A stretch of 64,000 bases of DNA. Origin: Candidatus Micrarchaeota archaeon (lineage in GTDB: Archaea; Micrarchaeota; Micrarchaeia; Micrarchaeales; Micrarchaeaceae). A program made the position numbers and the translations under genes. The stretch spans positions 13,054 through 77,053 of the forward strand of contig JAJZMY010000019.1 of NCBI GenBank assembly GCA_021848125.1, written 5' to 3'. The notes beneath the pieces were generated by a model. That model made no database searches, was not told the origin of the DNA, and saw nothing but the letters and a program-made list of their open reading frames with translations. This document shows positions 47,404 to 64,000 of this stretch, one piece after another. Position 1 is the first letter of the stretch, and each line of letters starts with the position of its first letter.

Positions 47404-48981
47404 TTAAGATTCATTTTTGTCTTCTTCTTTTTCTTCATTTTTGGTGTTTAAGATTTTTTTATAGTGTTTTTCAACAAGTTTATTGATTTTTAATGTTATA
47501 TCTGATAAATCTTTTCCAGTAATTGAACTTAGATCCTGTGCTAATTGTTTTGAATACCTCATTATTGTTTTGTATTTATTAACTTCATAATTAATTTGCT
47601 GTTTTCCTTTTATATACTTCTGAATTCCACGGGCGCTTTCCATTAATGCAAATCGAATTTCATTTATTATTTCTTCCTCTTTTGATATTGCTTCTTTTCC
47701 AACGCCTTCATAAGGAATATAAACAGATGAAACATTGACAAAAATGCTGATCGGCTGGGTTTCCAAGTCAAGTCCATATCTTTTCCATTCAATTGTTTTA
47801 ACAGCACTTGTTATTGCGCAGTTTCCTGCATCAAATAATAATGGCACGCGGTTTGCAAACCTCAAAATATTTGCAAATGACTCATTTTCTTGCTTATTTC
47901 CGGAATTGCCTCCAAAAGCAATTGCCGATTCAACAACAAACGGTATTCCGCCTCTGAAAACAAGAGGCTTTCTTTCTGTTACAAACATATATTCTGGGTT
48001 TAAAATATTTTCCAATGCAATCTTAATCTGCTTTTCACCAATTGGAATAACAGAATTTGTATCCGGAAGCATCCATTTAATTTTTTTAAAATGCTGAATT
48101 AATTTTTCTGCCTCTTCCCATGTTATTTTTTTTGGGTCTTTATTAAGATCAATATCTGTGATTTCTTTTAGTTTGTCTCTTGTTACACGTGAAAATGTTT
48201 CAAGCAAAAATAATGATAATTTATTTGATTTTGAATAAGATGCATATTCAAAAAGATCATTAACTGTTAGACCCAAGGGATGTGGTTTTATTGGCTTTGA
48301 TTTTCTAGGTATCTCTTCAACAGCCCTTAAAAAAATAAATTCTTCATTATCTGGGCTAATAAATTTTATTTCAATATGCGGATTTGATAAGGCAGTTCTT
48401 CTTAAATATTCATAAACACTGTGTTCTCCATTAATATATTTGACATCAGCAAGATTTATTTCTACATATAGCCCTTGTTCTGATTCATTTATTTCCGTTA
48501 GATTGCTAATTATTGGCTTGTTACTTTTAGTATCTATTGATACATTGCATGAATATGCATTTTTTCCAGTATTTGATTTTACAAATATTGGTTTTCCAGT
48601 TGTTATCTGTGAAAATAAAGTGCAACCGGCAGCGCCAATACCCTGCTGGCCTCTTTGCTGAATAAATCTATGGAATTTTGTCCCTGCTAGTATAACTGCC
48701 AATGCCTTTCCAATATAATTTTTAGGTATTCCTGGCCCATTGTCTCTGATAATAACTTTAAATTTGTTTTCTTCTTGTTTTTCAATTTTAACAAAAATGC
48801 TAGGCAAAATACCTGCTTCTTCGCAAGCATCCAATGAATTTGTTACATATTCATGCACAACAGTTACTATTGATCTTGAAATACTTGAATAGCCCAGCAT
48901 CTGCCTATTTTTTTTAAAAAATTCAGATACTGAATGCTCTTTAAATTCTTTAAAAATTTCATCTGCTTTGCTATTATCCAT
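47404..48981 (-). CDS. top6B: DNA topoisomerase VI subunit B
   Basis: The GHKL ATPase fold is indicated by VHEYVTNSLDA, IIRDNGPGIP and RGQQGIGAAG. A transducer domain follows. Length is 525 aa. Confidence 0.9.
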   Translation of the reverse strand: MDNSKADEIFKEFKEHSVSEFFKKNRQMLGYSSISRSIVTVVHEYVTNSLDACEEAGILPSIFVKIEKQEENKFKVIIRDNGPGIPKNYIGKALAVILAGTKFHRFIQQRGQQGIGAAGCTLFSQITTGKPIFVKSNTGKNAYSCNVSIDTKSNKPIISNLTEINESEQGLYVEINLADVKYINGEHSVYEYLRRTALSNPHIEIKFISPDNEEFIFLRAVEEIPRKSKPIKPHPLGLTVNDLFEYASYSKSNKLSLFLLETFSRVTRDKLKEITDIDLNKDPKKITWEEAEKLIQHFKKIKWMLPDTNSVIPIGEKQIKIALENILNPEYMFVTERKPLVFRGGIPFVVESAIAFGGNSGNKQENESFANILRFANRVPLLFDAGNCAITSAVKTIEWKRYGLDLETQPISIFVNVSSVYIPYEGVGKEAISKEEEIINEIRFALMESARGIQKYIKGKQQINYEVNKYKTIMRYSKQLAQDLSSITGKDLSDITLKINKLVEKHYKKILNTKNEEKEEDKNES

Positions 48982-49219: not shown

Positions 49220-50008
49220 ATGGCTCAAAATAATCCTAATCAAGGTATTATTATTCAAAATACTGCAAATAACCAGCAGCAGCAAGTTCAGCAAGAACAA
49301 ACTACTCCCTATGTTGAGTCAATAAAAATCAGTGCAAACTTAATCAAATCATTTGAAGATATTTCCAAAATAGTTTCGAATTTAGAAGTTTTTTCATATC
49401 AACTGAATCAGGATAATTTAATTTTATTTAAAGTAGAAAGCAGGGACTTGCAAAAAAAACCATTTCTTTTTTTTGTTTTTAGTTTTTATAAAGATTATAT
49501 TGAAATACAATATTCAATTGCAGTTGATGCAAGCAAAAAATTAAGAAGAATCACTATTATTAAGAATTTTTTGAGTGTTTTATCTTTAATAAGCAATTGC
49601 TATGAAATCAATTTAAAAGAATTATTCCAGCATTTGGATTCAATAATAGATGATCTTTTATCTTCCTTATCCCAAAGTTATAGCACATTGTTTAATAATT
49701 ATGATTCTATTTTTAATCAATATAAGGAATTGAAATTAATTAATAATGATCTTGCAATATCTAATAAAAATTTAGCTGCAACAACTGGACAGCTTACTCA
49801 AAAAAATAAAGAATTATCTGAAAAATTAAAGGACCTTGAGACATATTCAGATGAATCTTTAATGGTAATGATTGAAGAGTGGATTGAATCACATGATAAC
49901 ACAATTGATATTAATGAATTTGCAAAAAGTTATAAAATTATACCGCCAAGAGTAGAACAGATATTGAATAAGATGGTAAGTTTGGGTTATTTAGAATTAA
50001 AAGAATAA
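49220..50008 (+). CDS. hypothetical protein: Gln-rich N-terminus, coiled coil, C-terminal wHTH-like segment
   Basis: NNQQQQVQQEQ at the N-terminus, a heptad-like region (NNDLAISNKNLAATTGQLTQKNKELSEKLKDLE), and the C-terminal INEFAKSYKIIPPRVEQILNKMVSLGYLELKE. Confidence 0.4.
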   Translation: MAQNNPNQGIIIQNTANNQQQQVQQEQTTPYVESIKISANLIKSFEDISKIVSNLEVFSYQLNQDNLILFKVESRDLQKKPFLFFVFSFYKDYIEIQYSIAVDASKKLRRITIIKNFLSVLSLISNCYEINLKELFQHLDSIIDDLLSSLSQSYSTLFNNYDSIFNQYKELKLINNDLAISNKNLAATTGQLTQKNKELSEKLKDLETYSDESLMVMIEEWIESHDNTIDINEFAKSYKIIPPRVEQILNKMVSLGYLELKE

Positions 50009-50148
50009 TGATAAAAATGAAATATAATGTCAGGATTAATAAAAAAGTAAAATACATGAAGGTTTATACACTGCTTAAAAAAATAGGAAATAATGAAAAT
50101 TTTTTAACCAAACTTTTTATTAAAATATTTGCAAAAAATAAGCAATGA
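50008..50148 (+). CDS. possible small basic protein (46 aa)
   Basis: My own translation: MIKMKYNVRINKKVKYMKVYTLLKKIGNNENFLTKLFIKIFAKNKQ. Its ATG overlaps the previous stop (TAATG). Confidence 0.2.
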   Translation: MIKMKYNVRINKKVKYMKVYTLLKKIGNNENFLTKLFIKIFAKNKQ

Positions 50149-50203
50149 TTTTATCATTATTATTTTTAATTTTTATTATTATATAAAATATATTTTGATA
50201 TAA

Positions 50204-52726
50204 ATGCCAAAATCCAATAATCTAATTAATCTATTAAAATTACATAAACGATTAGTTATAATTGCAGTAATTGTTGCTGTCTTGTTTTTTGCGCTTATTT
50301 TTTTTATTCAATTCCAATTGCATTCAATAACATCGCATTATATAACAAAAAAAATAATAATTAATTCACAGCTTTCTGCTAGATTTATTTCATCTGGAAT
50401 AACATTTGATAATAATACAAATTTACAGAATATAAAATCTAAAAGAAACTATACAATAGAATCTTATCCTTATTCAATAATTAGTTATAAATCATATAAT
50501 CTTTCTAATTTAACAATAAATGAATCAATTTTCAAAAATGCAATACCTTCAAAGATTTATATATGGAATACAAGCGGTGAAAATTTTCAAGGCCTAAATA
50601 CTAATCAGGTTCTTGTTTTACTTAAAAAATATCTAAAAATTTACAATATAACTGATAATATTTCAATAATTTCCTATGCTAATATTTCGCAAATTCAGAA
50701 TAATTCAATATTGCTTGTACTAACAGGATTAATGCCAATCCAGATGTTTCAGCAAGTAAACAATTCAAATTTTACAACTATCTCATTCTTACTAAATAAA
50801 GGAACTAGCATAATTTATACGGGCGCAAATTTGTCAAGAGTTGTTCAGTCCCCATTTTCAACTCCACTTCCTTCCCAAAATATTCCAAGCTTTTTGGAAT
50901 GGATTCCGAATACAACAATTTATAATTCAAGTTTTTACTTTTCAAAAAAAACATTTAAATTTTTTAACGGCACTGATTATGGCCCAATAACGTATATTAA
51001 TTATCTGAATGGATCTGTTGTTGCTTTTTCAAACTACCCTGATTCTTGGAATTCAGTAAATCAGTTTTCATATGACTTGGCTAAATCAATTGCAGAATTG
51101 TTTTGGATGCCCAAATATGCAACAGGCTACAGATCTGTAAATTTATCTAATTTCAGTTATTCATCAGGAACATTGGGGCTTGTATTAAACAGTTCAAATG
51201 TTAATTATACTTATGAAAATCATAGTTTGATTGTAAATAACTTCAATTCTGGATTTCCCAGAATAACAATTTCAAATTCAAATAATTTTTCATTTAATAT
51301 AAATTTTCTAAATTCAACTAAATATTATTATTTTTATAAAAATAATATTAGTTATAATGCTACAATTAATTTATCAAATTATTCAAAATTTTTCTATATC
51401 CAAAATAAACCAAATTTTTCATTGAATGGCAGTGTGATTGTTCCAAACCTTGCAATTCCAAGCATACCAATTCTAGCAAATATTTCAGAGTTTGTAACAT
51501 GCCAAAATCTTAATTTGACAATAGAGCCATCAATTTATTTTTATACAATAAATTTCACTCAGATTGGCTCCCCAATATTTTTAGGATTTCATTATCCCTG
51601 CAAAAAATCATTCAATAATAAATTTACATTCTATTATTATCCAACTTTTAATCTCCCATCAGGAACTTATTTTGCAGTTGTTAGAAACTCTAACTTTTCA
51701 GTAGTTGGCTCAGGTATGTTTAATATTCCTAAAATAAATATTAATTTAAGCAGTGAAAATTTTAAAACAAATCAATTTATTTTGACAATAACTGCAAATA
51801 ATAAAATTTTATCTGGCATTCCATTCAAGTTAAATTTAAATAATTTCGGAAATGAGTCAGGAACAATTGTTAATGGCTCTATTATTTATCAATTGCCACA
51901 AGGAATAGTATTAACCTACAGCCAAAATCTTAATTTTACTTTATACATGCTTAACCATAAATATATTAAGTTTGTTCCCGGACAAGTAACCCCCTTTGTT
52001 GTTAATCAAAAAATCATAATATTAGGCATTGCAGGAATATTTTCTATTTTAATGATGGTTTTAGTAAAAGCGCCAAATAAAGATGAATTTTATATTGATG
52101 TGCCTTCAATTCCAATTCAAAAAAAGATTCCAGTTGAATTAGATACAAATGAATTTATAAGTATATTCAATAAATTAAATTTATATTATCACTGGAGATT
52201 CATGCCTTTGTCAAAAGATGAAATAAAAACAGGTGTATTTAATAATATAAGATTCAATGGAATGCCAGTGACTATTACTTATGACAATTTAGAAAAATTG
52301 CTTATAATGTTATCGCATAATAATATTTTAACAGATATTGATAATTTATATTTGCCTAATTCCTGGATTGATCAAGTTCAGCATGATGCGGAATATTTGG
52401 CTACTTTTAAAAAATTAAGGCTTTATTTTGTTTCGCATACATTCATGTTTACTGATCTAGATCTTAGTAATAGTGGCGATATTACTGCAACATTCCATGA
52501 TCAAAAAATAAATATAATTATTTATTCAAAATCAACAAAGTTTAAGAATATTCCAATATATGAAAACTCAAAAACCTACTTAGCCTTTTTAAATAATGAT
52601 AAATTAGAAGAATTTAAATTAAAATTATATAATTCTAATTTAGATGAAGCAAGGGAATTGGAGTTGTATATTTCATTAAATAAAATATTATTAATAAATG
52701 CGGATTCTCCAGAAATAATTATATAA
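50204..52726 (+). CDS. large bitopic surface protein: N-terminal TM, about 570-aa sequon-rich ectodomain, second TM, about 230-aa cytoplasmic domain
   Basis: TM1 is LVIIAVIVAVLFFALIFFI and TM2 is IIILGIAGIFSILMMVLV. I counted about three dozen N-x-S/T sequons by hand between the two TM segments. No domain recognised. Confidence 0.5.
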   Translation: MPKSNNLINLLKLHKRLVIIAVIVAVLFFALIFFIQFQLHSITSHYITKKIIINSQLSARFISSGITFDNNTNLQNIKSKRNYTIESYPYSIISYKSYNLSNLTINESIFKNAIPSKIYIWNTSGENFQGLNTNQVLVLLKKYLKIYNITDNISIISYANISQIQNNSILLVLTGLMPIQMFQQVNNSNFTTISFLLNKGTSIIYTGANLSRVVQSPFSTPLPSQNIPSFLEWIPNTTIYNSSFYFSKKTFKFFNGTDYGPITYINYLNGSVVAFSNYPDSWNSVNQFSYDLAKSIAELFWMPKYATGYRSVNLSNFSYSSGTLGLVLNSSNVNYTYENHSLIVNNFNSGFPRITISNSNNFSFNINFLNSTKYYYFYKNNISYNATINLSNYSKFFYIQNKPNFSLNGSVIVPNLAIPSIPILANISEFVTCQNLNLTIEPSIYFYTINFTQIGSPIFLGFHYPCKKSFNNKFTFYYYPTFNLPSGTYFAVVRNSNFSVVGSGMFNIPKININLSSENFKTNQFILTITANNKILSGIPFKLNLNNFGNESGTIVNGSIIYQLPQGIVLTYSQNLNFTLYMLNHKYIKFVPGQVTPFVVNQKIIILGIAGIFSILMMVLVKAPNKDEFYIDVPSIPIQKKIPVELDTNEFISIFNKLNLYYHWRFMPLSKDEIKTGVFNNIRFNGMPVTITYDNLEKLLIMLSHNNILTDIDNLYLPNSWIDQVQHDAEYLATFKKLRLYFVSHTFMFTDLDLSNSGDITATFHDQKINIIIYSKSTKFKNIPIYENSKTYLAFLNNDKLEEFKLKLYNSNLDEARELELYISLNKILLINADSPEIII

Positions 52727-52856
52727 TACTTTGATTGCTATTCTCTAAATTATTTTATATATTGTCTTAATTTTTACTATGCTTCCTATTTTTTAAATAG
52801 AAACCTATATATATCTAAATAATTAATTAATAGTATTATTGAATTATATAAAATAG

Positions 52857-53330
52857 GTGATAAGGATGGAAACATATAATATTGATAAAAAAAATAAAAA
52901 TAATAAGAGAAATAGAATTATTCGTGGAGCAGCAGGTATAGCGATTATAGGTTCATTGTCTTTTTCATTATATGGTTGCGCAGCATATATTCCATTTCAA
53001 AATGGCAGTTATATTAATATAAATCCAAATCAATTAACAATAGGAAATTTTGAGACTGGAGCTAATTTTTCAGTTCTTTTAAATGATTTAAACCAAATGA
53101 AATACAACCAAAAAATCAATGTTAACTTAAAAGATAAGACACAAATAATTCCAATATCAATTCTAAAATTAAAAAATAATTACATGGTTACAAATAAAAT
53201 TAGTAATGAAAAATATTATATTACTCCATCGCAGCTTGGAAATTTAGTTTATTATAAATTTCTTAGGCAAGATCCCAGAACAAAAGTAGAAGTTGCAATG
53301 CTGAGAAATAATACCTCATCAATTAATTAA
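52857..53330 (+). CDS. small secreted or lipoprotein-like protein
   Basis: A basic N-terminus, a hydrophobic stretch, then a lipobox-like LYGCAAY. The track start GTG 52857 lies inside GGTGAT, so the likely start is ATG 52866. Confidence 0.4.
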   Translation: MIRMETYNIDKKNKNNKRNRIIRGAAGIAIIGSLSFSLYGCAAYIPFQNGSYININPNQLTIGNFETGANFSVLLNDLNQMKYNQKINVNLKDKTQIIPISILKLKNNYMVTNKISNEKYYITPSQLGNLVYYKFLRQDPRTKVEVAMLRNNTSSIN

Positions 53331-53368: not shown

Positions 53369-53974
53369 ATGGCTATTAATAAATTAAAAAAATTAGGATT
53401 TGATTTAGATAACACAATTGCTGATTCTCTTCCAATAAAATTAATAAATAATGAATTAATCAAAAATAAAGAATGCAAGACTAAAATATGCAAAAAGCAT
53501 TTCACATCCTATTATTTTGATAATATTAAGGGCCTTGATCATGATCTTTTTATTAAATTATATAAAGCATACTGGAATGAACAAAAAAATAACATGGATA
53601 AAAATATAATAAAATTAATTGATAGCAAAATTCCAAAAATCATAAATAATCTGAGCAACCATTATGAAATTTACATTGTTACTGCCTCGTCACTTGATGC
53701 AGAAACAATTTTTAAATGGCTGTTTAAAAATCAGATATTTATTCCTAAAGAAAATTTAATATTATGCAAACCAGAAGAAAAAGTAAATTTTGGGATTGAT
53801 GTTTATATTGATGATAATTATGAGGAAGTTGCTTTAAAAGTTGCAGCAAATAATAAAATATCAATTGTATTGGAACAGCCATGGAATAAAAAATTATTAA
53901 ATGAAAATACTAATAAGAATATTATTCCTGCAAAGAACTGGTCAAAAATTGAATCAATATTATTAAGAAAATAA
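53369..53974 (+). CDS. HAD-superfamily 5'(3')-deoxyribonucleotidase-like phosphatase
   Basis: HAD motif I is GFDLDNTIADS, motif II YIVTASS, and motif IV YIDDN. The size of about 200 aa fits the NT5C-like family. Confidence 0.6.
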   Translation: MAINKLKKLGFDLDNTIADSLPIKLINNELIKNKECKTKICKKHFTSYYFDNIKGLDHDLFIKLYKAYWNEQKNNMDKNIIKLIDSKIPKIINNLSNHYEIYIVTASSLDAETIFKWLFKNQIFIPKENLILCKPEEKVNFGIDVYIDDNYEEVALKVAANNKISIVLEQPWNKKLLNENTNKNIIPAKNWSKIESILLRK

Positions 53975-54030: not shown

Positions 54031-55194
54031 TTAAATAAAACCCCTCATTTTTCCTCCGAGTCTTGCCGCGCCCCCTAAAAAGCTTGCTAATTGATTAATA
54101 GCAGCATATGCAATTACTATTATTAAAACAGGGTAAAATAATAACAATAGCCAGTAGCTTGCCATTGCATTTTTTATTTGCTGTACTTGAAGTATAAGAG
54201 GACTTGCAGGAGTCAAGGCATTTGTGATTGATCCTTGATTTGCGCCGAATTTATTTAGCAAAACAGATGCAGTAGTCAGGTTTTGCAAAACACTTGGAGC
54301 AGTGAAATAAAATGCAATTGCAAATAATATTGGCACAATCAAATAAAACGTTATTGCAATAGCCATCAACATTCCTCCCAATGCCCTTGTCGGGAATATT
54401 GATCTGAAAATAATTCCAGGAACTAGAAATACTGGTATTGATGCAATTGAAAAAAATACTAATAAAAAGTATTCAGCCCACAAAATAAATATTCCGTCAG
54501 AAATAATATTCATCAGTGCCATAGCAGGATCTAAAAAAAAGAAAGTCACAACAAACTGGCCGATTTCAAGCGCAATATTAACTACATTTGTTGCTTTTAG
54601 TATCAATTTAAAAATAGTTGTTGACGATCCACCAACAATCAATGACATTGAATAATAATATTTATCTTTAATGTATTGCGTAAATAAACTAGAATACAGA
54701 GTTTGTGATTCACTGACTGTTGCAGTGATTAAATTAAGTGCAGTTGGATATGGGTTAATAGGGCCAACAGTTAATCCTGGCAAAATACCAAATATAACAG
54801 CGCATACATATAAAAATAAAAGAACAATTATTCCACTTGCAGCTGCTTCGAATATTTCTCCAATTCCAAAATTCTTGATCCTGCTGTTTCCTGTCAATGC
54901 GCCAGCCATGTAAATTATAGATGCTATTGCAAATGAAATTAAAACAGCAATCCACATAAGCGGCGCTTCTTTTGTAAATGTATTGCCTATCTGGCTGTTT
55001 ATCTGGCAGTACCATGGTTCTGTTCCTTCAATTGTTGTCCTGATTGATGAAGGAAGCGTGGAGCAGCCAGCTGCGCTTGTTGATGGAGAAGGTATAATGC
55101 TGCCTGCCATGCTTACTGAGCTTATTAAACTTATAAAAACTAACAATAATGAAATTATTGAGCATAATTTTAATATTTTTTTCATATTTTCCAC
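54031..55194 (-). CDS. polytopic membrane protein, member 1 of a six-gene paralogous family (uncharacterised)
   Basis: Signal-like N-terminus, then S/T/P-rich SPSTSAAGCS..WYC. TM segment ending IIYMAG, linker GIGEIFEAAASG, loop motif FRSIFPTRALGGMLMAIAI..VP, and tail FLGGAARLGGKMRGFI. Confidence 0.7.
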   Translation of the reverse strand: MENMKKILKLCSIISLLLVFISLISSVSMAGSIIPSPSTSAAGCSTLPSSIRTTIEGTEPWYCQINSQIGNTFTKEAPLMWIAVLISFAIASIIYMAGALTGNSRIKNFGIGEIFEAAASGIIVLLFLYVCAVIFGILPGLTVGPINPYPTALNLITATVSESQTLYSSLFTQYIKDKYYYSMSLIVGGSSTTIFKLILKATNVVNIALEIGQFVVTFFFLDPAMALMNIISDGIFILWAEYFLLVFFSIASIPVFLVPGIIFRSIFPTRALGGMLMAIAITFYLIVPILFAIAFYFTAPSVLQNLTTASVLLNKFGANQGSITNALTPASPLILQVQQIKNAMASYWLLLLFYPVLIIVIAYAAINQLASFLGGAARLGGKMRGFI

Positions 55195-55249
55195 ATTTGT
55201 TATTTGTTTAATTATTAATTTAAATTTAATTATTGTTTAATATTATTTG

Positions 55250-56323
55250 CTAAATCATTGTTCCCATTAAACTCATAAATGACATTCTTTCTCCGATTGC
55301 AGTTGAAAAATCAATTATAAAAGCATCAAGAATCAGGAAATTCAAAAATGGTATAAATGTCAGTCCCCCAATTATATATCCCAGATTCAATGCAAAAGCT
55401 CCGGATATAAATACATTCTGGAATCCGAATAAATTAGAAATTGCTGTTGTCATAATGCCAGAATAAGCCTGTATAAACTGCCAAATGACTGTAGTTGCAC
55501 TAATAGTTCCGATTTGTGTTGAAATGAATCCATAGGTAATTGCAGTCAATAATGGAAAAACAAATCCAAGCCCGATCCCAAGTGCAATCATTGCCCCTCC
55601 AAAAGTTCTTGTTACTCCGAATATTCTTGCAACAAGCCCGATTACTAAAAACAAGGACAGGAACAGCAGTGATGAAGAGATAAGCATTAGCTGGATCTGG
55701 TTTAAAATCAGCATGACAAGTATTGCGCTGAAAAATACTGATAAAAATTCTGCTTGGGATTTTGGAAAAATACTATTTATATCAGAGCCAATTGAGACAG
55801 AACCCAGCTTTGTTGCACTTATTGAACTTGCCCCAATGCTTACATTTACTCCAGGGCTGAAATCAAGAATTGTCTGGCCCCAGTAAAAAACCTGGAAATA
55901 TGTTTCAACATCAGAATTGAAGGCACTTAAATCACATGCAGATAATTGAAATAATGTATCAGTGCTTGTGCACTGCGTTGGAACTAGATGTGCAGAGCTA
56001 AATGACGGCACTGGATTTGAAAAAAACAATGCGCTTATCCATACAAAAATCAATAAAATAACAAAAGACAAAAATGCTTCATATATCTGCATTTTTGTCC
56101 ATGCCTCTATTCTGGTATTAAACATGAATCTGGACAGCATATAAATAAATGCTGCAATTGCAATTACAACCAGAACAGCAATAAATGCAATTGGCTCCCA
56201 GTTGCTGACGCTGATTGGAAATGCAGGGCTGGAAGCAGCATATGAATTATTAATCAAGAAAATGCTTGCAAATAAAACAATAATAGAACTTACTGCATAT
56301 TTGCTGGTATTTTGCTTTTCCAT
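55250..56323 (-). CDS. polytopic membrane protein, member 2 of the paralogous family
   Basis: Signal-like N-terminus (..INNSYAASSP). FIYMLS, linker MQIYEAFLSF, a paired-Cys loop (QCTSTDTLFQLSAC), and loop motif ARIFGVTRTFGGAMIALGI..FP. Confidence 0.7.
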   Translation of the reverse strand: MEKQNTSKYAVSSIIVLFASIFLINNSYAASSPAFPISVSNWEPIAFIAVLVVIAIAAFIYMLSRFMFNTRIEAWTKMQIYEAFLSFVILLIFVWISALFFSNPVPSFSSAHLVPTQCTSTDTLFQLSACDLSAFNSDVETYFQVFYWGQTILDFSPGVNVSIGASSISATKLGSVSIGSDINSIFPKSQAEFLSVFFSAILVMLILNQIQLMLISSSLLFLSLFLVIGLVARIFGVTRTFGGAMIALGIGLGFVFPLLTAITYGFISTQIGTISATTVIWQFIQAYSGIMTTAISNLFGFQNVFISGAFALNLGYIIGGLTFIPFLNFLILDAFIIDFSTAIGERMSFMSLMGTMI

Positions 56324-56335
56324 TTTATCAAATAA

Positions 56336-57475
56336 TTAAATTACATTTTTTAATGCATGCTCTGAGCTTAATGAGGGCGCTCCTAGCAAGTCTCCTACTT
56401 GCTCCATAAAATTAAATGCAATTATTAATGAAAAAATATAAATTATTAATGTATATAATACTGGCTCTAAAATATATGTTGTAATAAATCCAAAAGGTGC
56501 AATAACCCCATTGATTGTATTTATAATTGAAGTAAAAATATTTATTCCACTATTTACGCTTGACACCTTGCTTGCTTGAAAATTACTATTAACCTGGCTT
56601 AGAGCACTTGCAGCAGAATTAGGGCATGCTGATGATGTTGATGCAGTTGATGCTGATGATGTTGATGCAAGGCATTGAAATGCAGCAGGCCCCATTAATC
56701 CAAAATAAAGCATAATTGGAAACATTATGTATAAGCCTGCAAACAGCCCAAGAAATGCGCCTCCAGCAGCCCTTGTCCATGGCACTGCCCTAAGAACAAT
56801 GCCAATATAAAGAAAAATCGGGAAAAATGCATAAATAATTCCCAGAATAATTGACATTCCAAACAATAGCATTATTAACATTCCAGAAATAGTTATCCCA
56901 TAATTTAATGGTGTTGAAATAATCCCAAACCCAGCAAAAGGCGAGAATGTAATTCCCTCCCAATTGGGATATATGCGCACTGTAATACTTGAAAATATTT
57001 TTATTATTAGTTGGGACAATGACATCTGAACTAATGGTGAAATCAATCCAAGTGAAGAAGTTGTCAGGCTTATGCAGTCAGAGCCATATATATTTGTTAT
57101 GCCTCCGCTTGCTGATGTGCTTGTAGAGCCAAGCATGCTCATTGCTGTAAGAAAAACAAATGCAACAATGCCTGTTAATATTATTTCTCCGATTTCAGCC
57201 CTTGTAAATATTAATAATTTTTCTATTCCAAGCCCATATGCAAGTGCGTACAAGAATCCAACAACTGTAATCATAACTAGAATTATCAGCACTGTCATTT
57301 TCAGCAATGCATTAGGCGCATTTGGAGCCAGTGTTAAAAAAGTGTTTTTCGGGTTTATTACTCCGCCTGGACCAGTGCAGAATTGCGTTATTGTTTCTGC
57401 ATGAATGCTTGGAATGATTAAAATAAACACTATTAAAATCAATAATGATTTTTTGATTGCATTGTTTTTTTTCAT
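56336..57475 (-). CDS. polytopic membrane protein, member 3 of the paralogous family
   Basis: Signal-like N-terminus (..IPSIHAET). FLYALA, linker RAEIGEIILTG, loop motif LRAVPWTRAAGGAFLGLFA..FP, S/T/A-rich loop CLASTSSASTASTSSAC, and tail VGDLLGAPS. It lies 12 nt from the next gene. Confidence 0.7.
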   Translation of the reverse strand: MKKNNAIKKSLLILIVFILIIPSIHAETITQFCTGPGGVINPKNTFLTLAPNAPNALLKMTVLIILVMITVVGFLYALAYGLGIEKLLIFTRAEIGEIILTGIVAFVFLTAMSMLGSTSTSASGGITNIYGSDCISLTTSSLGLISPLVQMSLSQLIIKIFSSITVRIYPNWEGITFSPFAGFGIISTPLNYGITISGMLIMLLFGMSIILGIIYAFFPIFLYIGIVLRAVPWTRAAGGAFLGLFAGLYIMFPIMLYFGLMGPAAFQCLASTSSASTASTSSACPNSAASALSQVNSNFQASKVSSVNSGINIFTSIINTINGVIAPFGFITTYILEPVLYTLIIYIFSLIIAFNFMEQVGDLLGAPSLSSEHALKNVI

Positions 57476-57488
57476 AGCATCTTTTTTA

Positions 57489-59072
57489 TTATATTATTTT
57501 TGACAATCCTGCCAGGTTTGTGTCTCCGCCGAGAAGGCCTGATAGCCCTATAATTGATGAAATAACAATAAAAATATTTATAATGGGAAGAAAATATGCA
57601 GTAACTCCTATTATGCCATATGCTTCCATAAATTTAAAAAATGCCCTTAATAAGCTATTGGGTCCACAATTGTCTGTTATGACCATATGGGGCACGCCTG
57701 GAGTAACAAGGGATCCAACGCCAGTATATACCAATGTTACTAATGATGAACCAGGTACAAGGAATTCAATAGAATCAATTGCCTCAGCTTCCAGAAGATT
57801 GTCATTTGACGGCCAGCATTGATAATAATATGCTATTTTGTTTAATTGAGGCTCAATGAAAAAATTAAGAGTATATGGATCTTGGACAGGAGTGCCTGAA
57901 GACCATTGGACAGGCGCATCTGATGGATATCCTGGTATGAATGTAATTGGGTTTGTTGCAATTGTATTGAATCCGTAAATTCCTCCAATGCATCCGCTTG
58001 CGCTTGGATTTGCAGAGCATGAGCTTGGAGACGATGAAATCAAATTTCCAATCCCGTTTCCAAGGCCAAGGTATTCAAGCAAAAACACTGCTGGAAATAT
58101 TAAAATCATTGCAATTCCGACTGCAATCAGCAATCCGCCTATTTTCCTGGTAAATATTGTTGCCCTTAATACTAATCCAGAGAATATGAGAACTGGCCAT
58201 GAATACAAAGAAATAATAATAAACAGGAACTGGGCAATGAATGAATTAAGAGCAGTTGTCAGCAATGCGCCAAGTGTTCCGAGCTCGCTGTAAACAATGT
58301 CAAACCCAGCATAAGGCGTTGCTGCATATCTTATATATAAAATTGGCAACGCAGTCGCTATTCCAGCAAGACCTTCAGGCACTGCTATAATTCCGCCCAC
58401 TGCTGAGCATGAAGCCATTGTTGGAATTGGATCCAGTAATGCATCAACTGCTGGTATGCACCAGCTCATTGTCGGCGTAAGCATTGACAAGTACCCAATA
58501 AAGCTGTCAAAAACAAACAAGCTGTTAAGATTGTGGGCCGTCTGGTTTGTCAAGTTTGCCAGGATTATTCCAGACGCTACTAATGGATAATCAATATGCC
58601 TTGTTGGAGAATCAAGGGAAGTATAAGCGCATAATCCTGGAAACTTGGAATAACTTGACTTTAAAAATGTGTTTGTGCTGGCGCCAAATGAATTAGTTCC
58701 TATTATATTTATAAAACTTGTTGTGTAGAGATTGCTGCATAAAGTACTGATTGTTCCTGGGGATGCTGGCGCTACTGATGAAGATGATGAAGAACTGTAA
58801 AAGAAGTTTGAATTTGTTAATACTGAATCAAAGCTTGTTGCCAAAAACAGCAGAATTCCAATAATTATCATTGCCAGGATTGCTGTGCCAACTGCCTGGT
58901 ATGCCTCTGTTTTTGCGCCTTCTTTTATTTTGGAATTATTAAGAAAAGAGCCAATAAAATACCACACACTGACAACTGCAAAATCAAGAATAATTGCAAT
59001 AATAACCAATGGCATTATTGCATTTGATGCCGAAGAAAAACTCAATGGATTAATGCTTGATAATAAAAACAT
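57489..59072 (-). CDS. polytopic membrane protein, member 4 of the paralogous family (largest, 527 aa)
   Basis: Linker KTEAYQAVGTA, an SSSSSSVAPASP stretch, several paired-Cys loops, loop motif LRATIFTRKIGGLLIAVGI..FP, and tail LLGGDTNLAGLSKII. Confidence 0.7.
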   Translation of the reverse strand: MFLLSSINPLSFSSASNAIMPLVIIAIILDFAVVSVWYFIGSFLNNSKIKEGAKTEAYQAVGTAILAMIIIGILLFLATSFDSVLTNSNFFYSSSSSSSVAPASPGTISTLCSNLYTTSFINIIGTNSFGASTNTFLKSSYSKFPGLCAYTSLDSPTRHIDYPLVASGIILANLTNQTAHNLNSLFVFDSFIGYLSMLTPTMSWCIPAVDALLDPIPTMASCSAVGGIIAVPEGLAGIATALPILYIRYAATPYAGFDIVYSELGTLGALLTTALNSFIAQFLFIIISLYSWPVLIFSGLVLRATIFTRKIGGLLIAVGIAMILIFPAVFLLEYLGLGNGIGNLISSSPSSCSANPSASGCIGGIYGFNTIATNPITFIPGYPSDAPVQWSSGTPVQDPYTLNFFIEPQLNKIAYYYQCWPSNDNLLEAEAIDSIEFLVPGSSLVTLVYTGVGSLVTPGVPHMVITDNCGPNSLLRAFFKFMEAYGIIGVTAYFLPIINIFIVISSIIGLSGLLGGDTNLAGLSKII

Positions 59073-59109
59073 TTTATCATTTAATTTATTGTTCTTTTAT
59101 TTTATATTC

Positions 59110-59226
59110 TTTTTGCAAAAGCTTTTTTTAAAAGCTTTATTTCTGCTAAAGCTTCAGCAGGTTTGCTGCTGAATTTTGCAAACTTTTCATTTTGCCAAAG
59201 CTTTTTTTAAAAGCTTTATTATTCAT
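59110..59226 (-). repeat. palindromic intergenic repeat, long form (copy 3, inverted orientation)
   Basis: The reverse complement reads atgaataataaagcttttaaaaaaagctttggcaaaatgaaaagtttgcaaaattcagcagcaaacctgctgaagctttagcagaaataaagcttttaaaaaaagcttttgcaaaa. It fills the 150-nt gap between paralogs 5 and 4. Confidence 0.8.
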
Positions 59227-60674
59227 ATTAAATTTGTATTCAAAGCTTTTGTCAGCCCCATTGCAAATCCAATGACAATTGCAAAATCAATTCCCAGCAT
59301 AAAAAATACAGTGAATTCAAATTGCGCAATTTCATTAACAAGGTTTAATAAATCCTGAATAACTATATTCGGATCAATAATTGACCAAATCACATTGCCT
59401 GTTACTGCTGTTGAAAGAATTTGATCTATTGACGGCAATCCTATTCCAAGAATTGTTGCTGACGCTGTCGGGTTGCCTGCGAATAAGGAGCTGGATGGTA
59501 TTTTATTCAATAAATATGTTGAATGCAAATAAGTATACGAAGGGTTTTTCGAGCTGAATATCCAGTGAATTGCCCATGCATTAAAAACAATTGTTAATGG
59601 CAGTATAAGGTAAAAGGCAATTGCCAAGGCAAGAAATGCATTTGCTGCTGATTTCAAGCCAACACTTTGCGCAGCTGCGCCTCCTCCCCCAAAACCAGAA
59701 TAAGCAATCATTCTAAGAACCAATGCAACTGGCAGCACAACAGTAAAAGCAACAAACTGTATAACAGGCAGAATCAGCCATAATAAATACAGCAAGCCAA
59801 TAGCCATAATTACAAGAGGAGCAAAAATTGAAAGCAGCAAATCGCTTAAAATATTGTATGATGCTCCCAAATCATAGCCAGTTGAAAATTGGACAGACAA
59901 TGAAAAAGGCCCTAATGAAGTAGCTGCAGAAATACTTGAAGATAGTGCAGAAGTTAGAACTGAACTTGCTGAAGCAATAACATTAAACAGCAACTGGCCA
60001 ATATTTGAAAATATCATTGAATCAATATTAAAGCCTATTGCATAAGTATAAATCTGGATCAACAGTTTAATTCCAACAGAATTTGATAAATTTCCAATAT
60101 AATAATCAGCAAACTGAAAAGGATTGCTTGCAGGAACAGGATATGTTCCAGTGCTTAAAGAACTTCCAATTGAGCTTGTTATTTTGCATGCACTTGTAGT
60201 AAAGGTAAGAAGCAGCATAAGTATTGCAGCGCTTATTATTACCTGGATTAATTCTATTTTTGTGATTTGCGTGAATTTTTCCCTTTCCCTTGCTGAAATA
60301 AATCGTGATGCCATATAAATAAATGAAATAACAAGCAGGCTTACTATTAAGACATATAAATTTATCCACATCCAGTTATTGTAATTTCCAGTGCTTGTTC
60401 CCCCAAATAAACTGCACGACTGTATGCTCGGGCCTGTACTTGTTGGCGCAGGAGATGAAGCAGGGATTGCTGTCGCTCCGGCAGCATTAATATTCATGAA
60501 TACAGATAAAAACAAAACAGCAATAAAGCCAATCAAAATAAAAAATGATTTTTGGTTTTTTATTTTTTTATTATTTATTAAATTAGTTTTAGTGCTTTTG
60601 CGCATGCTCATTCTGTATTTATTTTTTTGATTTTTGCCAAAGCTTTTTTTAAAAGCTTTATTTATATTATTCAT
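59223..60674 (-). CDS. polytopic membrane protein, member 5 of the paralogous family (divergent loop motif)
   Basis: S/T/P-rich segment ATAIPASSPAPTSTGPSIQSC. FIYMAS, linker KIELIQVIISA, and a degenerate motif LRMIAYSGFGGGGAAAQ. The first 21 codons (MNNINKAFKKSFGKNQK..) are read from a copy of the palindromic repeat. Met22 or Met24 (60611 or 60605) may be the real start. Confidence 0.65.
   Translation of the reverse strand: MNNINKAFKKSFGKNQKNKYRMSMRKSTKTNLINNKKIKNQKSFFILIGFIAVLFLSVFMNINAAGATAIPASSPAPTSTGPSIQSCSLFGGTSTGNYNNWMWINLYVLIVSLLVISFIYMASRFISAREREKFTQITKIELIQVIISAAILMLLLTFTTSACKITSSIGSSLSTGTYPVPASNPFQFADYYIGNLSNSVGIKLLIQIYTYAIGFNIDSMIFSNIGQLLFNVIASASSVLTSALSSSISAATSLGPFSLSVQFSTGYDLGASYNILSDLLLSIFAPLVIMAIGLLYLLWLILPVIQFVAFTVVLPVALVLRMIAYSGFGGGGAAAQSVGLKSAANAFLALAIAFYLILPLTIVFNAWAIHWIFSSKNPSYTYLHSTYLLNKIPSSSLFAGNPTASATILGIGLPSIDQILSTAVTGNVIWSIIDPNIVIQDLLNLVNEIAQFEFTVFFMLGIDFAIVIGFAMGLTKALNTNLI
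60628..60674 (-). repeat. palindromic intergenic repeat, short form (inverted), overlapping the annotated 5' end of paralog 5
   Basis: The reverse complement reads atgaataatataaataaagcttttaaaaaaagctttggcaaaaatca. Confidence 0.75.
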
Positions 60675-60739
60675 GATATTTCATTTAATTTAATTTCAAA
60701 CAATATTTAATATTTTAATATTCTGGTTTTTATTTTTTA

Positions 60740-62053
60740 TTATGCTAATTTCAATCTTCCAATTCCTAATTTTAAAGCACCACCTAATAATCTTGCAATG
60801 TTTTCTGCAATAACAATTGTTATTACTAAATCAATTATTAAAAGCAAAAATTCTATTATTAATGGCAAAATTAAAAATAATACATAATTGTACACAGCAG
60901 AAATTCCAGACATTGGCCCAAACATGCCAACTAAAATGCCAGTAAAAAATACAGATGAATCAACAATAAATGGCGATGTTACAATACTGCAGATAGGGGT
61001 TTTTACTGTATTAAATATTTGCTGCAGTAAAGGGCAAATTAATGGAGAGGTGTTTATTGTAAATGTTGTTGGGGCAGTCGGAGGGCTTAGGGTATTCATT
61101 AAGAAATTCTGAATCGGCACATTTATTGCAAGCAATAATGTTGGAAATATTATTGAAATGGCAATTGCAATTGCAATCAGCATTCCGCCAATTGATCTTA
61201 AAAAAGGCATTGCCCTGAATACAAGGCCTATTGGCAGCAAAATTGAAAGGCACAACATAGCCAATGGAATAAACATATCTTTCATAAACTGGAATAGCAT
61301 TAATAAAGGAACAGTAATAAAGTCAAATGCCTGGTTTACAAATGAATAGCTGCCGTGTGATGATTCAAGAGTATTTGACAAAAACAGATTCTCTTGAAAT
61401 CCAAATGACAATGCCCCAATTGTAAGTGGAGGAATTGGAAGCACTGGAATTGGAATATAAAGCATCACTGAAATGCTTTTTATAAAGCTTAATCCAACAG
61501 ATACGCCGAGCAGTCCCCAGTAAGCAGTATAAGCTGATGCAAGTTCTGGTACAAGATAATTTGACTGAATAGAAGTATAAAGCGAGCCTAATGTCGAGCT
61601 TAAGCTTGTTGTAGAGCCAGGCGGAGCGCCTACAAGCGCATTTGCAATGCCGCCGATTTCAACAAGCAGTGAAAAAATAATAGCAACCAGCAACGCGCTT
61701 TTTGTAAGCTCCCATATTTCAGCCTTGTACCAGTTTTTAAATCCAGATATCTGCAAAACCTCTCCAATCATGTAAGATACTGCAATCATTAAAAGAGACA
61801 CGGTTAGAGCAATTAATGCAATTGGAATTGAATCAGTAATGCATTTTCCAACTGGCTCACTGCTTCCAGTCATAATACAATAAGTGCTAGGCAGTGCTGT
61901 TGCAGATGCAGGAGAAGTTGTCTTGCTTGGAGTACATGATAAAGAAAGAGAACAAGCAGTTCCTGCTGGAGTTGCTGTAATGAAAAAATTAGAAAATATA
62001 AAAAAAGATAAAAATAAAATAAATATAAATAATAAATTAATTTTTTTATTCAT
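60740..62053 (-). CDS. polytopic membrane protein, member 6 of the paralogous family
   Basis: Signal-like N-terminus, then TPAGTACSLSLSCTPSKTTSPASATALPSTYC..KC. SYMIG, linker KAEIWELTKSA, loop motif FRAMPFLRSIGGMLIAIAI..FP, and tail LLGGALKLGIGRLKLA. Confidence 0.7.
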   Translation of the reverse strand: MNKKINLLFIFILFLSFFIFSNFFITATPAGTACSLSLSCTPSKTTSPASATALPSTYCIMTGSSEPVGKCITDSIPIALIALTVSLLMIAVSYMIGEVLQISGFKNWYKAEIWELTKSALLVAIIFSLLVEIGGIANALVGAPPGSTTSLSSTLGSLYTSIQSNYLVPELASAYTAYWGLLGVSVGLSFIKSISVMLYIPIPVLPIPPLTIGALSFGFQENLFLSNTLESSHGSYSFVNQAFDFITVPLLMLFQFMKDMFIPLAMLCLSILLPIGLVFRAMPFLRSIGGMLIAIAIAISIIFPTLLLAINVPIQNFLMNTLSPPTAPTTFTINTSPLICPLLQQIFNTVKTPICSIVTSPFIVDSSVFFTGILVGMFGPMSGISAVYNYVLFLILPLIIEFLLLIIDLVITIVIAENIARLLGGALKLGIGRLKLA

Positions 62054-63572: not shown

Positions 63573-64000
63573 TTAATGCTTTAATAATGCAAATCTTTTC
63601 ATATATGATTCTGCCTGAAGAATTACTAGAAATGGCAGTATAAAAATAGAATTAAAAATAAGCATAATAAATATTGATATCAGTGTAGGAAATAGGGATG
63701 TAAAAATAAAGTCAAATAAAGTAATCAGCACAACTGCAATAATAAGCCATAGTATAAAATAATTGAATTTTTTTGAAAAGAATGAAATGCTTTTTTTAAT
63801 TGCATTGATTGTCTTAGAATCATCAATTACTATTGATGAAGGCGCATAAAAAAATATAGGAATCAGACACAGCAGAATAACAGCGCTTACTAATCCTGAA
63901 AAGCCAAAAACCAATTTGTTAAGCAAAATCGGAACTGCAATGGCAATAAAACTAAACAATAATAAAACTAAAAAAACTTTTCCAGTATATTTCTCAAGCC
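63573..64000 (-). CDS. integral membrane protein, partial (the ORF stays open to the right window edge)
   Basis: About 4 hydrophobic segments. The in-frame translation upstream of the listed TTG start (..LEKYTGKVFLVLLL) has no stop before position 64000. Confidence 0.4.
   Translation of the reverse strand, partial: LEKYTGKVFLVLLLFSFIAIAVPILLNKLVFGFSGLVSAVILLCLIPIFFYAPSSIVIDDSKTINAIKKSISFFSKKFNYFILWLIIAVVLITLFDFIFTSLFPTLISIFIMLIFNSIFILPFLVILQAESYMKRFALLKH

Follow-up and report, generated by a model that had tools for sequence, protein, structure and literature searches.

Among described systems, those closest to the genes treated here include the Ced machines of Sulfolobales and the Ted machines of Thermoproteales, which are chromosomal, domesticated, conjugation-derived DNA importers with a VirB4-like ATPase, a VirB2-like pilin, and one or more polytopic membrane proteins (PMC9905601). 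Two systems from symbionts also invite comparison. Patescibacteria carry a chromosomal type IV secretion system (T4SS), mostly without a relaxase, that is reported to be essential for epibiotic growth in Saccharimonadia (PMC12102498), and the SPEARE proteins of Nanohaloarchaeota combine, within a single polypeptide, an immunoglobulin (Ig)-rich ectodomain, a coiled coil, a transmembrane (TM) segment, and an ATPase of the VirB4/TraG type (PMC10266531). Here we describe three adjacent genes, cc262, mic46, and big840 (together, the trio), from a metagenome-assembled genome of the DPANN phylum Micrarchaeota (776 kb in 41 contigs, 26% G+C, 95% completeness). They lie in a stretch of 64,000 nucleotides (nt), positions 13,054 to 77,053 of contig JAJZMY010000019.1 in assembly GCA_021848125.1, which we call the window and to which all coordinates refer unless another contig or locus is named.

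The trio are real, conserved genes and almost certainly belong to a conserved cluster that also encodes an ATPase and a family of polytopic membrane proteins. This cluster is most likely a strongly remodelled relative of type IV secretion and of the Ced and Ted machines. The trio and their neighbors are as follows:

49220-50008, plus strand: cc262, 262 amino acids (aa), from the open reading frame (ORF) listing
50008-50148, plus strand: mic46, 46 aa, likely true start at ATG 50017, TAATG overlap with cc262, from the ORF listing
50204-52726, plus strand: big840, 840 aa, from the ORF listing
52857-53330, plus strand: orf157, 157 aa, likely start at 52866, from the ORF listing
54031-62053, minus strand: array of six paralogous polytopic membrane proteins, placed by synteny
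47404-48981, minus strand: top6B, NCBIfam match at 8.4e-174

An earlier note on this DNA had read the four plus-strand ORFs as a block of no recognisable family, immediately next to the array and possibly linked to it. All four occur at exactly the coordinates it gave, and scans against Pfam, NCBIfam, PADLOC, and PHROGs returned nothing above threshold for any of them, nor for the six array paralogs; Pfam scans of individual members of the big840 and cc262 families likewise gave no match that passed. With a G+C content of 23-26% across the block, stop codons are frequent and long frames rare, so these ORFs are not chance. The proposed link to the array holds for cc262, mic46, and big840 on synteny and phyletic profiles and fails for orf157. 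The block is neither adjacent to the array, as a nucleotidase gene lies between them, nor a unit of its own; the trio is the displaced end of one larger cluster.

Gene order and distribution of the cluster

We mapped every component by tblastn across 80 species-level Micrarchaeota loci with big840 homologs. In two distant relatives of the source genome (L001 and L002), the called genes form a single co-directional run of polytopic paralogs, two 277-aa proteins, the ATPase, a protein of 102/106 aa, a protein of 121/118 aa, a 242-aa cc262 homolog, a 58/45-aa ORF, and a 793/806-aa big840 homolog, which ends against a convergent top6B. The same order recurs in about 70 of the 80 loci, as far as the contig reaches, with a median intergenic spacing of a few nt. 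Of the trio, mic46 had been put forward only as a possible basic ORF coupled to cc262 by the TAATG overlap; it is conserved in 74 of the 77 loci that hold cc262, typically 1-10 nt after that gene and a few nt before big840. The three genes are thus tightly packed in that order and syntenic with the ATPase and the array. The conserved neighbor of the cluster end, top6B, is convergent with big840 in most relatives and divergent from cc262 in the source genome.

Some loci keep only part of the run together: s121, cc262, mic46, and big840 in four (L020, L024, L025, and L036), and the trio alone in L037. The trio is therefore the tightest sub-unit of the cluster. In deep-branching relatives, a reduced core of a 2-TM protein, the ATPase, an s121 homolog, cc262, and the big protein is directly adjacent. 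In one deep-branching genome (GCA_038874215; L094:7324-12601), the big-protein homolog directly follows a NurA-HerA pair in place of the cluster ATPase. This was seen once only and could reflect rearrangement by chance.

The distribution of the three families was surveyed in 301 genomes across the phylum, of which 176 are high-quality, in 129 genera:

big840 cytoplasmic domain: 258/301 genomes, 155/176 high-quality genomes, 106/129 genera
cc262: 259/301 genomes, 156/176 high-quality genomes, 106/129 genera
array paralog family (alignment A4): 264/301 genomes, 155/176 high-quality genomes, 106/129 genera

The phyletic patterns of the trio and the array match and are nearly identical. The genomes listed as without a match, about half of all such genomes, agree in the families that have none of the three (f10, most of f11, f15, f17, f18, and f20). 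Absence of co-occurrence with the array had been named beforehand as what would refute a link between the two blocks; the matching profiles speak clearly against such an absence.

Searched with the big840 profile, 1.84 billion representative proteins yielded 340 family clusters, 212 of them below 1e-30; among the 150 listed, nearly all are full length (780-900 aa). The homologs are labelled Micrarchaeota or bear labels that resemble mis-binning, and the named public copies seen are all called "hypothetical protein." For cc262, 317 homologs match at 50-76% identity. No relatives of the trio families were detected outside the phylum, and no account of the cluster was found in the searchable literature. 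The big840 tail usually gives one match per genome. In several other Micrarchaeota families (e.g., f4 and f9), cc262 gives two and sometimes three, which suggests a cc262 paralog.

A mobile element or defence island was considered as an identity for the cluster and rejected: the genes are mostly single-copy, occur in most of the phylum, always stand beside top6B, and have no PADLOC or PHROGs match.

Fragmentation in the source lineage

In the genus of the source genome, the trio is inverted and the motor genes have moved to another locus, leaving the cluster in three pieces. The motor block lies outside the window on the minus strand of contig C5 (C5:2366-6660) and comprises 2-TM proteins of 277 and 279 aa, a 500-aa ATPase that is 76% identical to that of L001, s100, and s141 (141 aa). 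The ORFs on either side of it, one of 240 aa and one coding for a 171-aa membrane protein, match no component of the cluster.

Only three of the 80 loci (L007, L008, and L061, from relatives at 57% identity) share the arrangement of the window, in which top6B on the minus strand is followed by cc262, mic46, big840, and a nucleotidase gene on the plus strand and then by the array on the minus strand. As these three are independent assemblies, the rearrangement is real and confined to this lineage. Fragmentation and inversion together explain why the trio had looked like a separate block. Repeats were looked for at the inversion breakpoints, and only AT-rich chance matches were found. The nucleotidase gene occupies this position in no other locus of the 80 and is context rather than a cluster member:

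53369-53974, plus strand: NT5C/HAD-type nucleotidase gene, 201 aa, Pfam NT5C at 1.5e-7, above the cut-off

A probable conjugation-like motor

The cluster ATPase scores above the Pfam cut-offs for DUF87 (55.5 bits), AAA_10 (53.1), and the TraG P-loop domain (38.9). Its longest-coverage match in the PDB is VirB4 (4ag5, 3e-10, residues 59-327) and its top match by E-value is HerA (8wiv, 3.1e-11, residues 243-358); PADLOC HerA models match too. By sequence comparison, its place in the VirB4/HerA superfamily is established. By hhalign, s100 is a small homolog of the C-terminal helical tail of the ATPase (97%), and the two 277-aa proteins, each with two TM helices at its N-terminus, are paralogs of one another (96%). 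A Zn ribbon and two TM helices make up s141, and the array paralogs have about 5-8 hydrophobic segments each. In two deep-branching loci (L090:7290-8873 and L095:3788-5362), s100 is fused to the C-terminus of the ATPase and a single 2-TM protein is present.

Candidate pilins accompany the cluster. Directly upstream of it in L090, two small proteins each combine a signal peptide with a pair of hydrophobic helices; of these, the 124-aa protein matches T4SS_pilin at 25.3 bits (cut-off 26.6; 1.7e-5) and TrbC at 21.6 bits (cut-off 27.9; 2.5e-4). Upstream of the array in the source genome, a 129-aa protein (C31:77412-77801, equivalent to window positions 64359-64748) matches TrbC at 19.2 bits (1.4e-3) and the L090 protein at 3e-8 in tblastn. 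These matches are full length and the architecture is right; all fall under the curated cut-offs.

Derivation of the cluster from a T4SS is favored by a modest margin over its not being so derived. With Ced and Ted it would share a chromosomal, domesticated state and the set of ATPase, pilin, and polytopic components, and we count as a further likeness that no relaxase was seen among the cluster proteins scanned here. More broadly, no relaxase-like or DNA-processing family appears among the cluster proteins scanned against Pfam and NCBIfam or in the precomputed Pfam assignments of L001 and L002. The Micrarchaeota cluster departs from Ced and Ted in its four- to six-fold multiplied polytopic component, its short ATPase (about 500 aa), and its two separate 2-TM proteins; Ced and Ted have no counterpart of cc262, mic46, or big840, and sequence similarity to their proteins was undetectable with the methods used. 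The Patescibacteria T4SS is alike in being a widespread chromosomal cluster of ultra-small epibionts, with VirB2-like pilins, mostly no relaxase, and a proposed co-option for host interaction. It differs in being bacterial, of the MPF-FATA class, with recognisable VirB4, VirB6, and VirB8, and has no equivalent of the trio. The likeness to SPEARE is one of architecture only: in both, a DPANN symbiont links an Ig-like surface part, by way of a TM segment, with a cytoplasmic part that is accompanied by a coiled coil and an ATPase of the VirB4/TraG type. SPEARE is one giant chain of about 75 Ig domains with a fused ATPase, whereas the Micrarchaeota ATPase, coiled-coil protein, and glycoprotein are separate genes, and big840 has two or three sandwiches plus an alpha/beta domain and a tail with a winged helix and an endonuclease-like fold in place of an ATPase.

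From anatomy, synteny, and analogy, we propose that the trio, exposed at the surface on one side and cytoplasmic on the other, forms the coupling module of a chromosomal T4SS/Ced-like machine, an explanation that we hold to be just better than an even bet. The machine would consist of VirB2-like pilin gene(s), four to six polytopic paralogs, two 2-TM proteins, the VirB4/HerA-superfamily ATPase, the small homolog of the ATPase tail, the zinc-ribbon 2-TM protein, and then the trio. As the conserved last genes of such a conjugation-like membrane machine, the trio are candidates for its host-facing part. In this proposal, big840 would be a glycosylated subunit that bridges membrane and S-layer and makes contact with the envelope or the host, with two cytoplasmic pieces, its C-terminal domain and the mic46 peptide. 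The big840 tail, mic46, and cc262 may dock on or regulate the ATPase, and docking would couple outside events to the motor.

Several observations weigh against this proposal. The trio resembles no known T4SS, Ced, or Ted protein in Pfam, NCBIfam, PDB sequence, or Foldseek searches; the T4SS subunits VirB8, VirB10, coupling protein, and adhesin were not matched, and Foldseek returned only generic Ig, fibronectin type III (FN3), and winged-helix folds. The ATPase matches HerA as well as VirB4, the candidate pilins stay below the curated Pfam cut-offs, and the array paralogs match no VirB6 or TrbL model in the Pfam and NCBIfam scans. The trio also occurs apart from the motor (in the source genome, L024, L036, and L037), and in L094 the big protein adjoins NurA-HerA. 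Finally, a CxxC pair in the ectodomain, conserved in 77 of 79 homologs, is gone from the window big840.

The cytoplasmic side of the trio

A full-length AlphaFold2 model of big840, built from a 19-sequence alignment, has a mean predicted local distance difference test score (pLDDT) of 78.9. Together with hydropathy, it resolves the following features:

50252-50308 (aa 17-35), plus strand: first TM helix (TM1), hydropathy 3.54, model helix 7-41
50369-51274 (aa 56-357), plus strand: membrane-distal alpha/beta ectodomain, pLDDT 80-93, column identity 0.45
51284-51379 (aa 361-392), plus strand: N-rich insertion with 6 sequons, pLDDT 30-36 (disordered), column identity 0.09
51389-51976 (aa 396-591), plus strand: membrane-proximal Ig/FN3-like beta-sandwich domains, by Foldseek against the PDB
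52007-52063 (aa 602-620), plus strand: second TM helix (TM2), IIILGIAGIFSILMMVLV, by hydropathy and model
52064-52723 (aa 621-840), plus strand: cytoplasmic domain, 220 aa, the most conserved part

The two TM helices and the cytoplasmic domain described in the earlier note are borne out; the latter measures 220 rather than roughly 230 aa. Column identity is 0.77 in its juxtamembrane motif (KAPNxDEFYIDVP / KAPNRDEFYIDVP) and 0.64-0.65 in the rest of the tail, versus 0.45-0.48 in the ectodomain.

Ig/FN3 matches crowd the Foldseek list of the full-length protein and hide other domains, and the cytoplasmic domain was therefore modelled alone from alignment A2 of 72 sequences (pLDDT 89.5, predicted template modelling score 0.84). 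The model consists of a winged helix (aa 648-718) followed by an alpha-beta-beta-beta-alpha-alpha-beta subdomain (aa 719-840), whose DSSP order (H111-126, E142-146, E149-155, E172-177, H180-192/196-206, E210-214) fits a PD-(D/E)xK core. Structure prediction and Foldseek, which had been recommended for both parts of the protein, gave Ig/FN3-like sandwiches for the ectodomain and no significant neighbor for the cytoplasmic domain, with no match at E <= 0.001 in the PDB or BFVD. Its best full-length structural match, VC1899 (1xmx), is non-significant (E 2.6e-3, template modelling score about 0.28). Further weak matches are the winged-helix domains of SelB, YceH, Nse1/Nse3, APC2, and Dcc1 in the PDB and, in BFVD, viral proteins of which several are labelled restriction endonuclease or VRR-NUC. 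By sequence profile there was no genuine PDB match; two AI-designed TIM barrels were rejected as spurious hits on a repeated 40-residue motif. As for catalysis, D759 is invariant, and the next strand reads D-Q-K in the window protein and E-R-S, E-R-I, E-R-A, or Q-R-K in homologs. With no conserved D...(D/E)xK motif, the modelled subdomain at aa 719-840 is probably a non-catalytic, endonuclease-like fold, an assignment that we hold tentatively. VC1899 itself has a winged helix and, after it, a restriction-endonuclease-like fold. Compared with it and with the Cdn1 nucleases (8z4i and 9u49), the big840 tail lacks a CARF domain and the conserved D...(D/E)xK and is tethered to the membrane.

The second cytoplasmic piece, mic46, is strongly basic (consensus MKYxVRINKRxRYIRVYxIxKKxG..NxxTKLFxKIF) and matches the 58- and 45-aa ORFs of L001 and L002 in tblastn at 1.8e-11 and 9.5e-10. 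Its homologs suggest a start at ATG 50017 (MKYNV...) rather than at 50008. In deep-branching Micrarchaeota, the big proteins are longer (850-900 aa) and have an extra N-terminal cytoplasmic tail of 60-80 aa. They lack a separate micro-ORF, and in L090 and L095 only 26 nt and 11 nt, respectively, separate the cc262 homolog from the big gene (cc244 and big866 in L095). The tails of the long homologs share the pattern K-x-Y-x-F-D-V-K-K-R-Y...KK...LF..KK. The mic46 profile aligns with them in register (hhalign probability 73.5%, P 2.9e-5), and every other cluster component stays below 1% in the same comparison; searched directly, the mic46 hidden Markov model gives one weak match to the long homologs (E 0.057). 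We conclude with moderate confidence, from these alignments, that mic46 is a split-off N-terminal tail of the big protein. What the window's family encodes as separate genes is in two instances one gene in L090 and L095, with s100 as part of the ATPase gene and mic46 as part of the big gene.

An 18-nt inverted repeat (94% complementary) brackets mic46 at 49999-50016 and 50149-50166, with one arm spanning the cc262 stop and mic46 start and the other just past the mic46 stop. It may be without meaning, as a rough estimate gives about 0.4 such pairs by chance in 5 kb of AT-rich sequence.

These cytoplasmic features raise an alternative to the coupling module, namely that the trio handles nucleic acid at one end of a Ced-like machine for DNA import or export, with the ectodomain secondary. 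The winged helix and endonuclease fold of big840, the basic mic46, and the winged helix of cc262 would then act on DNA, by binding or processing it, where the channel opens into the cytoplasm. In its favor, the tail has a winged helix and then an alpha-beta-beta-beta-alpha-beta topology, 1xmx is its best full-length structural match, several weak viral matches have nuclease labels, the neighbors include a Zn-ribbon protein and a HerA/FtsK/VirB4-superfamily ATPase, and one relative has the big gene beside NurA-HerA. We nonetheless regard this as unlikely: the fold matches are all non-significant (E > 1e-3, template modelling score about 0.3), the position of the would-be catalytic lysine varies among K, S, I, and A, the nearest winged-helix matches include protein-binding ones (Nse1/Nse3, APC2, and Dcc1), and the scans of cluster proteins described above held no relaxase-like or DNA-processing family.

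The outward side of big840

A short basic cytoplasmic tail precedes TM1, and basic residues adjoin both TM helices. All 38 N-x-S/T sequons of big840 lie between the helices (aa 42-601) and none in the tail. The estimate of about three dozen by eye was therefore close, and the enrichment is real: 2000 composition-preserving shuffles gave 15.1 +/- 3.3 with a maximum of 28. The median homolog has 22 sequons outside and 1 inside. The sequon distribution and the basic residues support an N-in/C-in bitopic protein with a sequon-enriched, presumably glycosylated outside part, in agreement with the topology first proposed. The AglB-like oligosaccharyltransferase gene noted at 32.0-34.5 kb is likewise substantiated:

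32006-34495: AglB-like gene, STT3 match of 33.5 bits against a cut-off of 24.5

Taken with the enrichment of sequons outside, this gene in the window makes the big840 ectodomain a predicted N-glycoprotein by sequence.

Foldseek of the full-length model against the PDB returned 206 matches with E <= 0.001. The top 50 are mostly of Ig/FN3 type and include complement C5, C4, and C3, the barrels of factor XIII and transglutaminase-2, and FN3/Ig tandems (E about 1e-6 to 5e-5). For the modelled protein, such matches identify the membrane-proximal sandwiches and nothing more specific. The N-rich insertion is specific to the genus; the 57%-identical relatives of the window protein alone share it. At 50582-50593 (aa 127-130), the ectodomain CxxC pair is missing, and the consensus SxxCFxCG reads SGENFQGL; the homologs that keep the pair include the 57%-identical relatives. 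An assembly error is unlikely, since the same protein sequence is on record from 11 contigs.

A sequon-rich exterior, membrane-adjacent Ig-like sandwiches, and a bitopic anchor would also suit an S-layer anchor or stalk. In that alternative big840 would be SlaB-like, cc262 and mic46 would be its cytoplasmic partners, and linkage to the ATPase would reflect envelope assembly. Like big840 as proposed here, the SlaB-type stalks of Sulfolobales are glycosylated beta-sandwiches that are anchored in the membrane and bridge the gap up to the S-layer. SlaB differs in its single TM segment, at the C-terminus, and its long coiled coil, and it lacks a cytoplasmic domain, where big840 has two TM helices and such a domain; nor is SlaB encoded in an ATPase cluster. 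A near-universal, mostly single-copy gene also fits a stalk. The S-layer protein of Micrarchaeum harzensis, SLP_Mh, carries a PF05123 domain; its anchoring is unknown and a stalk protein has been proposed (10.1101/2021.04.28.441871; PMC8975820), which speaks for a stalk role. None of the 19 big840 family members searched has a PF05123 match at E <= 1, so big840 is not the known Micrarchaeota S-layer protein of SLP_Mh type, and its architecture differs from that described for SLP_Mh (10.1101/2021.04.28.441871). Overall, we consider a stalk rather unlikely: big840 has no S-layer Pfam domain, its most conserved part is the cytoplasmic 220 aa, which a passive anchor would not need, and its place in the run relative to the ATPase and cc262 genes has been kept in about 70 species.

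The coiled-coil protein cc262

The description of cc262 as a Gln-rich coiled-coil protein ending in a winged-helix-like fold proved accurate. A Q/N-rich, non-conserved start (aa 1-30) is followed by a conserved N-domain (about aa 31-130, motif VESRDxQKxPFLFF), a coiled coil (about aa 131-205), and a C-terminal winged helix (about aa 206-262); mean column identity in alignment A3 is 55%. Searches against PDB sequence profiles gave coiled-coil noise and a CdvB winged helix at E 0.94. Sub-threshold Pfam matches among 62 relatives were to ZapB (60), DUF3450 (46), and the winged helices of EAP30/Vps36 (45) and PCI (28).

Some NCBI records name cc262 homologs "cell division protein ZapB." The match of cc262 to ZapB (PF06005) reaches 14.9 bits against a cut-off of 31.5 and covers aa 145-206 only. 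ZapB is short, all coiled coil, and without an N-domain or winged helix, and we rejected this identity for cc262, which has a conserved N-domain and a winged helix besides its coiled coil. By sequence, the name is probably a propagated annotation error. A link to the endosomal sorting complex required for transport (ESCRT) through the EAP30-like winged helix was rejected as well. The source genome has three FtsZ genes and no Snf7, so there is no reason to tie cc262 to division or ESCRT.

The winged helices of cc262 and big840 could instead mark the trio as an independent signalling or regulatory unit, a membrane receptor whose winged-helix modules control transcription, in a neighborhood that is merely stable. 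The idea of a receptor was already raised in the earlier note, and the trio does stay together when parted from the motor. We find this very improbable in view of a phyletic profile equal to that of the paralog family, with joint absence in the same families among the genomes listed, of operon-like spacing on a strand shared with the ATPase genes in about 70 species, and of the adjacent reduced core of deep-branching relatives. Finally, service of the cluster in cell division or chromosome segregation, with a ZapB-like cc262 and an FtsK/HerA-type DNA pump, has the NCBI name and the sub-threshold ZapB match in 60 of 62 relatives to speak for it and is hardly credible, as that match is a generic coiled coil, ZapB has neither N-domain nor winged helix, an FtsZ division apparatus is already there, and a divisome would not be expected to include pilin-like genes, six polytopic paralogs, or a large, presumably glycosylated ectodomain.

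Neighboring genes outside the conserved cluster

The fourth ORF of the original block, orf157, probably starts at ATG 52866, behind GGTGAT. It has a basic N-terminus, a hydrophobic stretch (aa 25-43), and the sequence L-Y-G-C. Measured against the lipobox pattern L-[ASTVI]-[GAS]-C at the end of a signal peptide, the lipobox-like LYGCAAY first noted is therefore present, with an atypical Y at position -2. No tblastn match to orf157 was found in the 80 loci, nor in the 57 genomes from outside the genus among 60 relatives searched, and the proposed link to the array does not extend to this gene. One of four same-genus genomes gives weak matches (1.3e-4 and 1.1e-3). In L007, L008, and L061, big840 is directly followed by a gene for a protein of about 160 aa whose lipobox is canonical (LTLTGC); orf157 is 27% identical to these positional counterparts over 134 aa (pairwise E 0.028). 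Most simply, orf157 is a putative, fast-evolving, genus-restricted lipoprotein-like gene that came to its place through the rearrangement and stands outside the conserved cluster.

In these three loci (L007:6574-7383, L008:4283-5027, and L061:13216-13884), another two small ORFs, of about 117-120 aa and 81-131 aa, sit between the lipobox gene and the nucleotidase gene; the window has neither, and its gap between big840 and the nucleotidase gene is 642 nt versus about 1.5 kb. Beyond the array on its upstream side (minus strand; window 63573-64000 and further, C31:76626-80184), the genes encode, besides the 129-aa pilin candidate, a 245-aa polytopic protein that crosses the window end, an 82-aa Zn-ribbon protein, and a 648-aa polytopic protein whose homolog is a 502-aa gene inside or beside the cluster in L001 and L075.

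Implications for Micrarchaeota

What is new here is the analysis of the terminal module, namely its domain layout, its topology, its link to the motor and array, and the split or fused state of mic46, together with the genus-level rearrangement. The description of the trio supplies targets for work in the cultivated Ca. Micrarchaeum harzensis and ARM-1. Cryo-electron tomography of ARM-1 has revealed, at the point where nanotubes of the host enter the micrarchaeal envelope, a barrel-like docking structure of 21 nm that is unassigned (10.1101/2024.05.20.594898). It is conceivable, as a long shot, that the trio is the host-contact gate of a Micrarchaeota symbiosis organelle, in which big840 oligomers would form an envelope-spanning collar for passage between host and symbiont. 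The ARM-1 structure would be one candidate for such a collar, and the winged-helix/endonuclease-fold domain of big840, mic46, and cc262 would switch the VirB4/HerA-like motor on at contact. If so, these three families would offer the first molecular entry point to the way in which a DPANN cell connects to its host.

Micrarchaeota, which are tiny and depend on hosts, are unable to make many of their building blocks, and none of their proteins is known to take part in obtaining material from hosts. For that role, the most concrete candidate is the conjugation-like cluster, which is chromosomal, inherited vertically, and found across most of the phylum, and the trio are the cluster genes that would reach from the cytoplasm to the cell surface.

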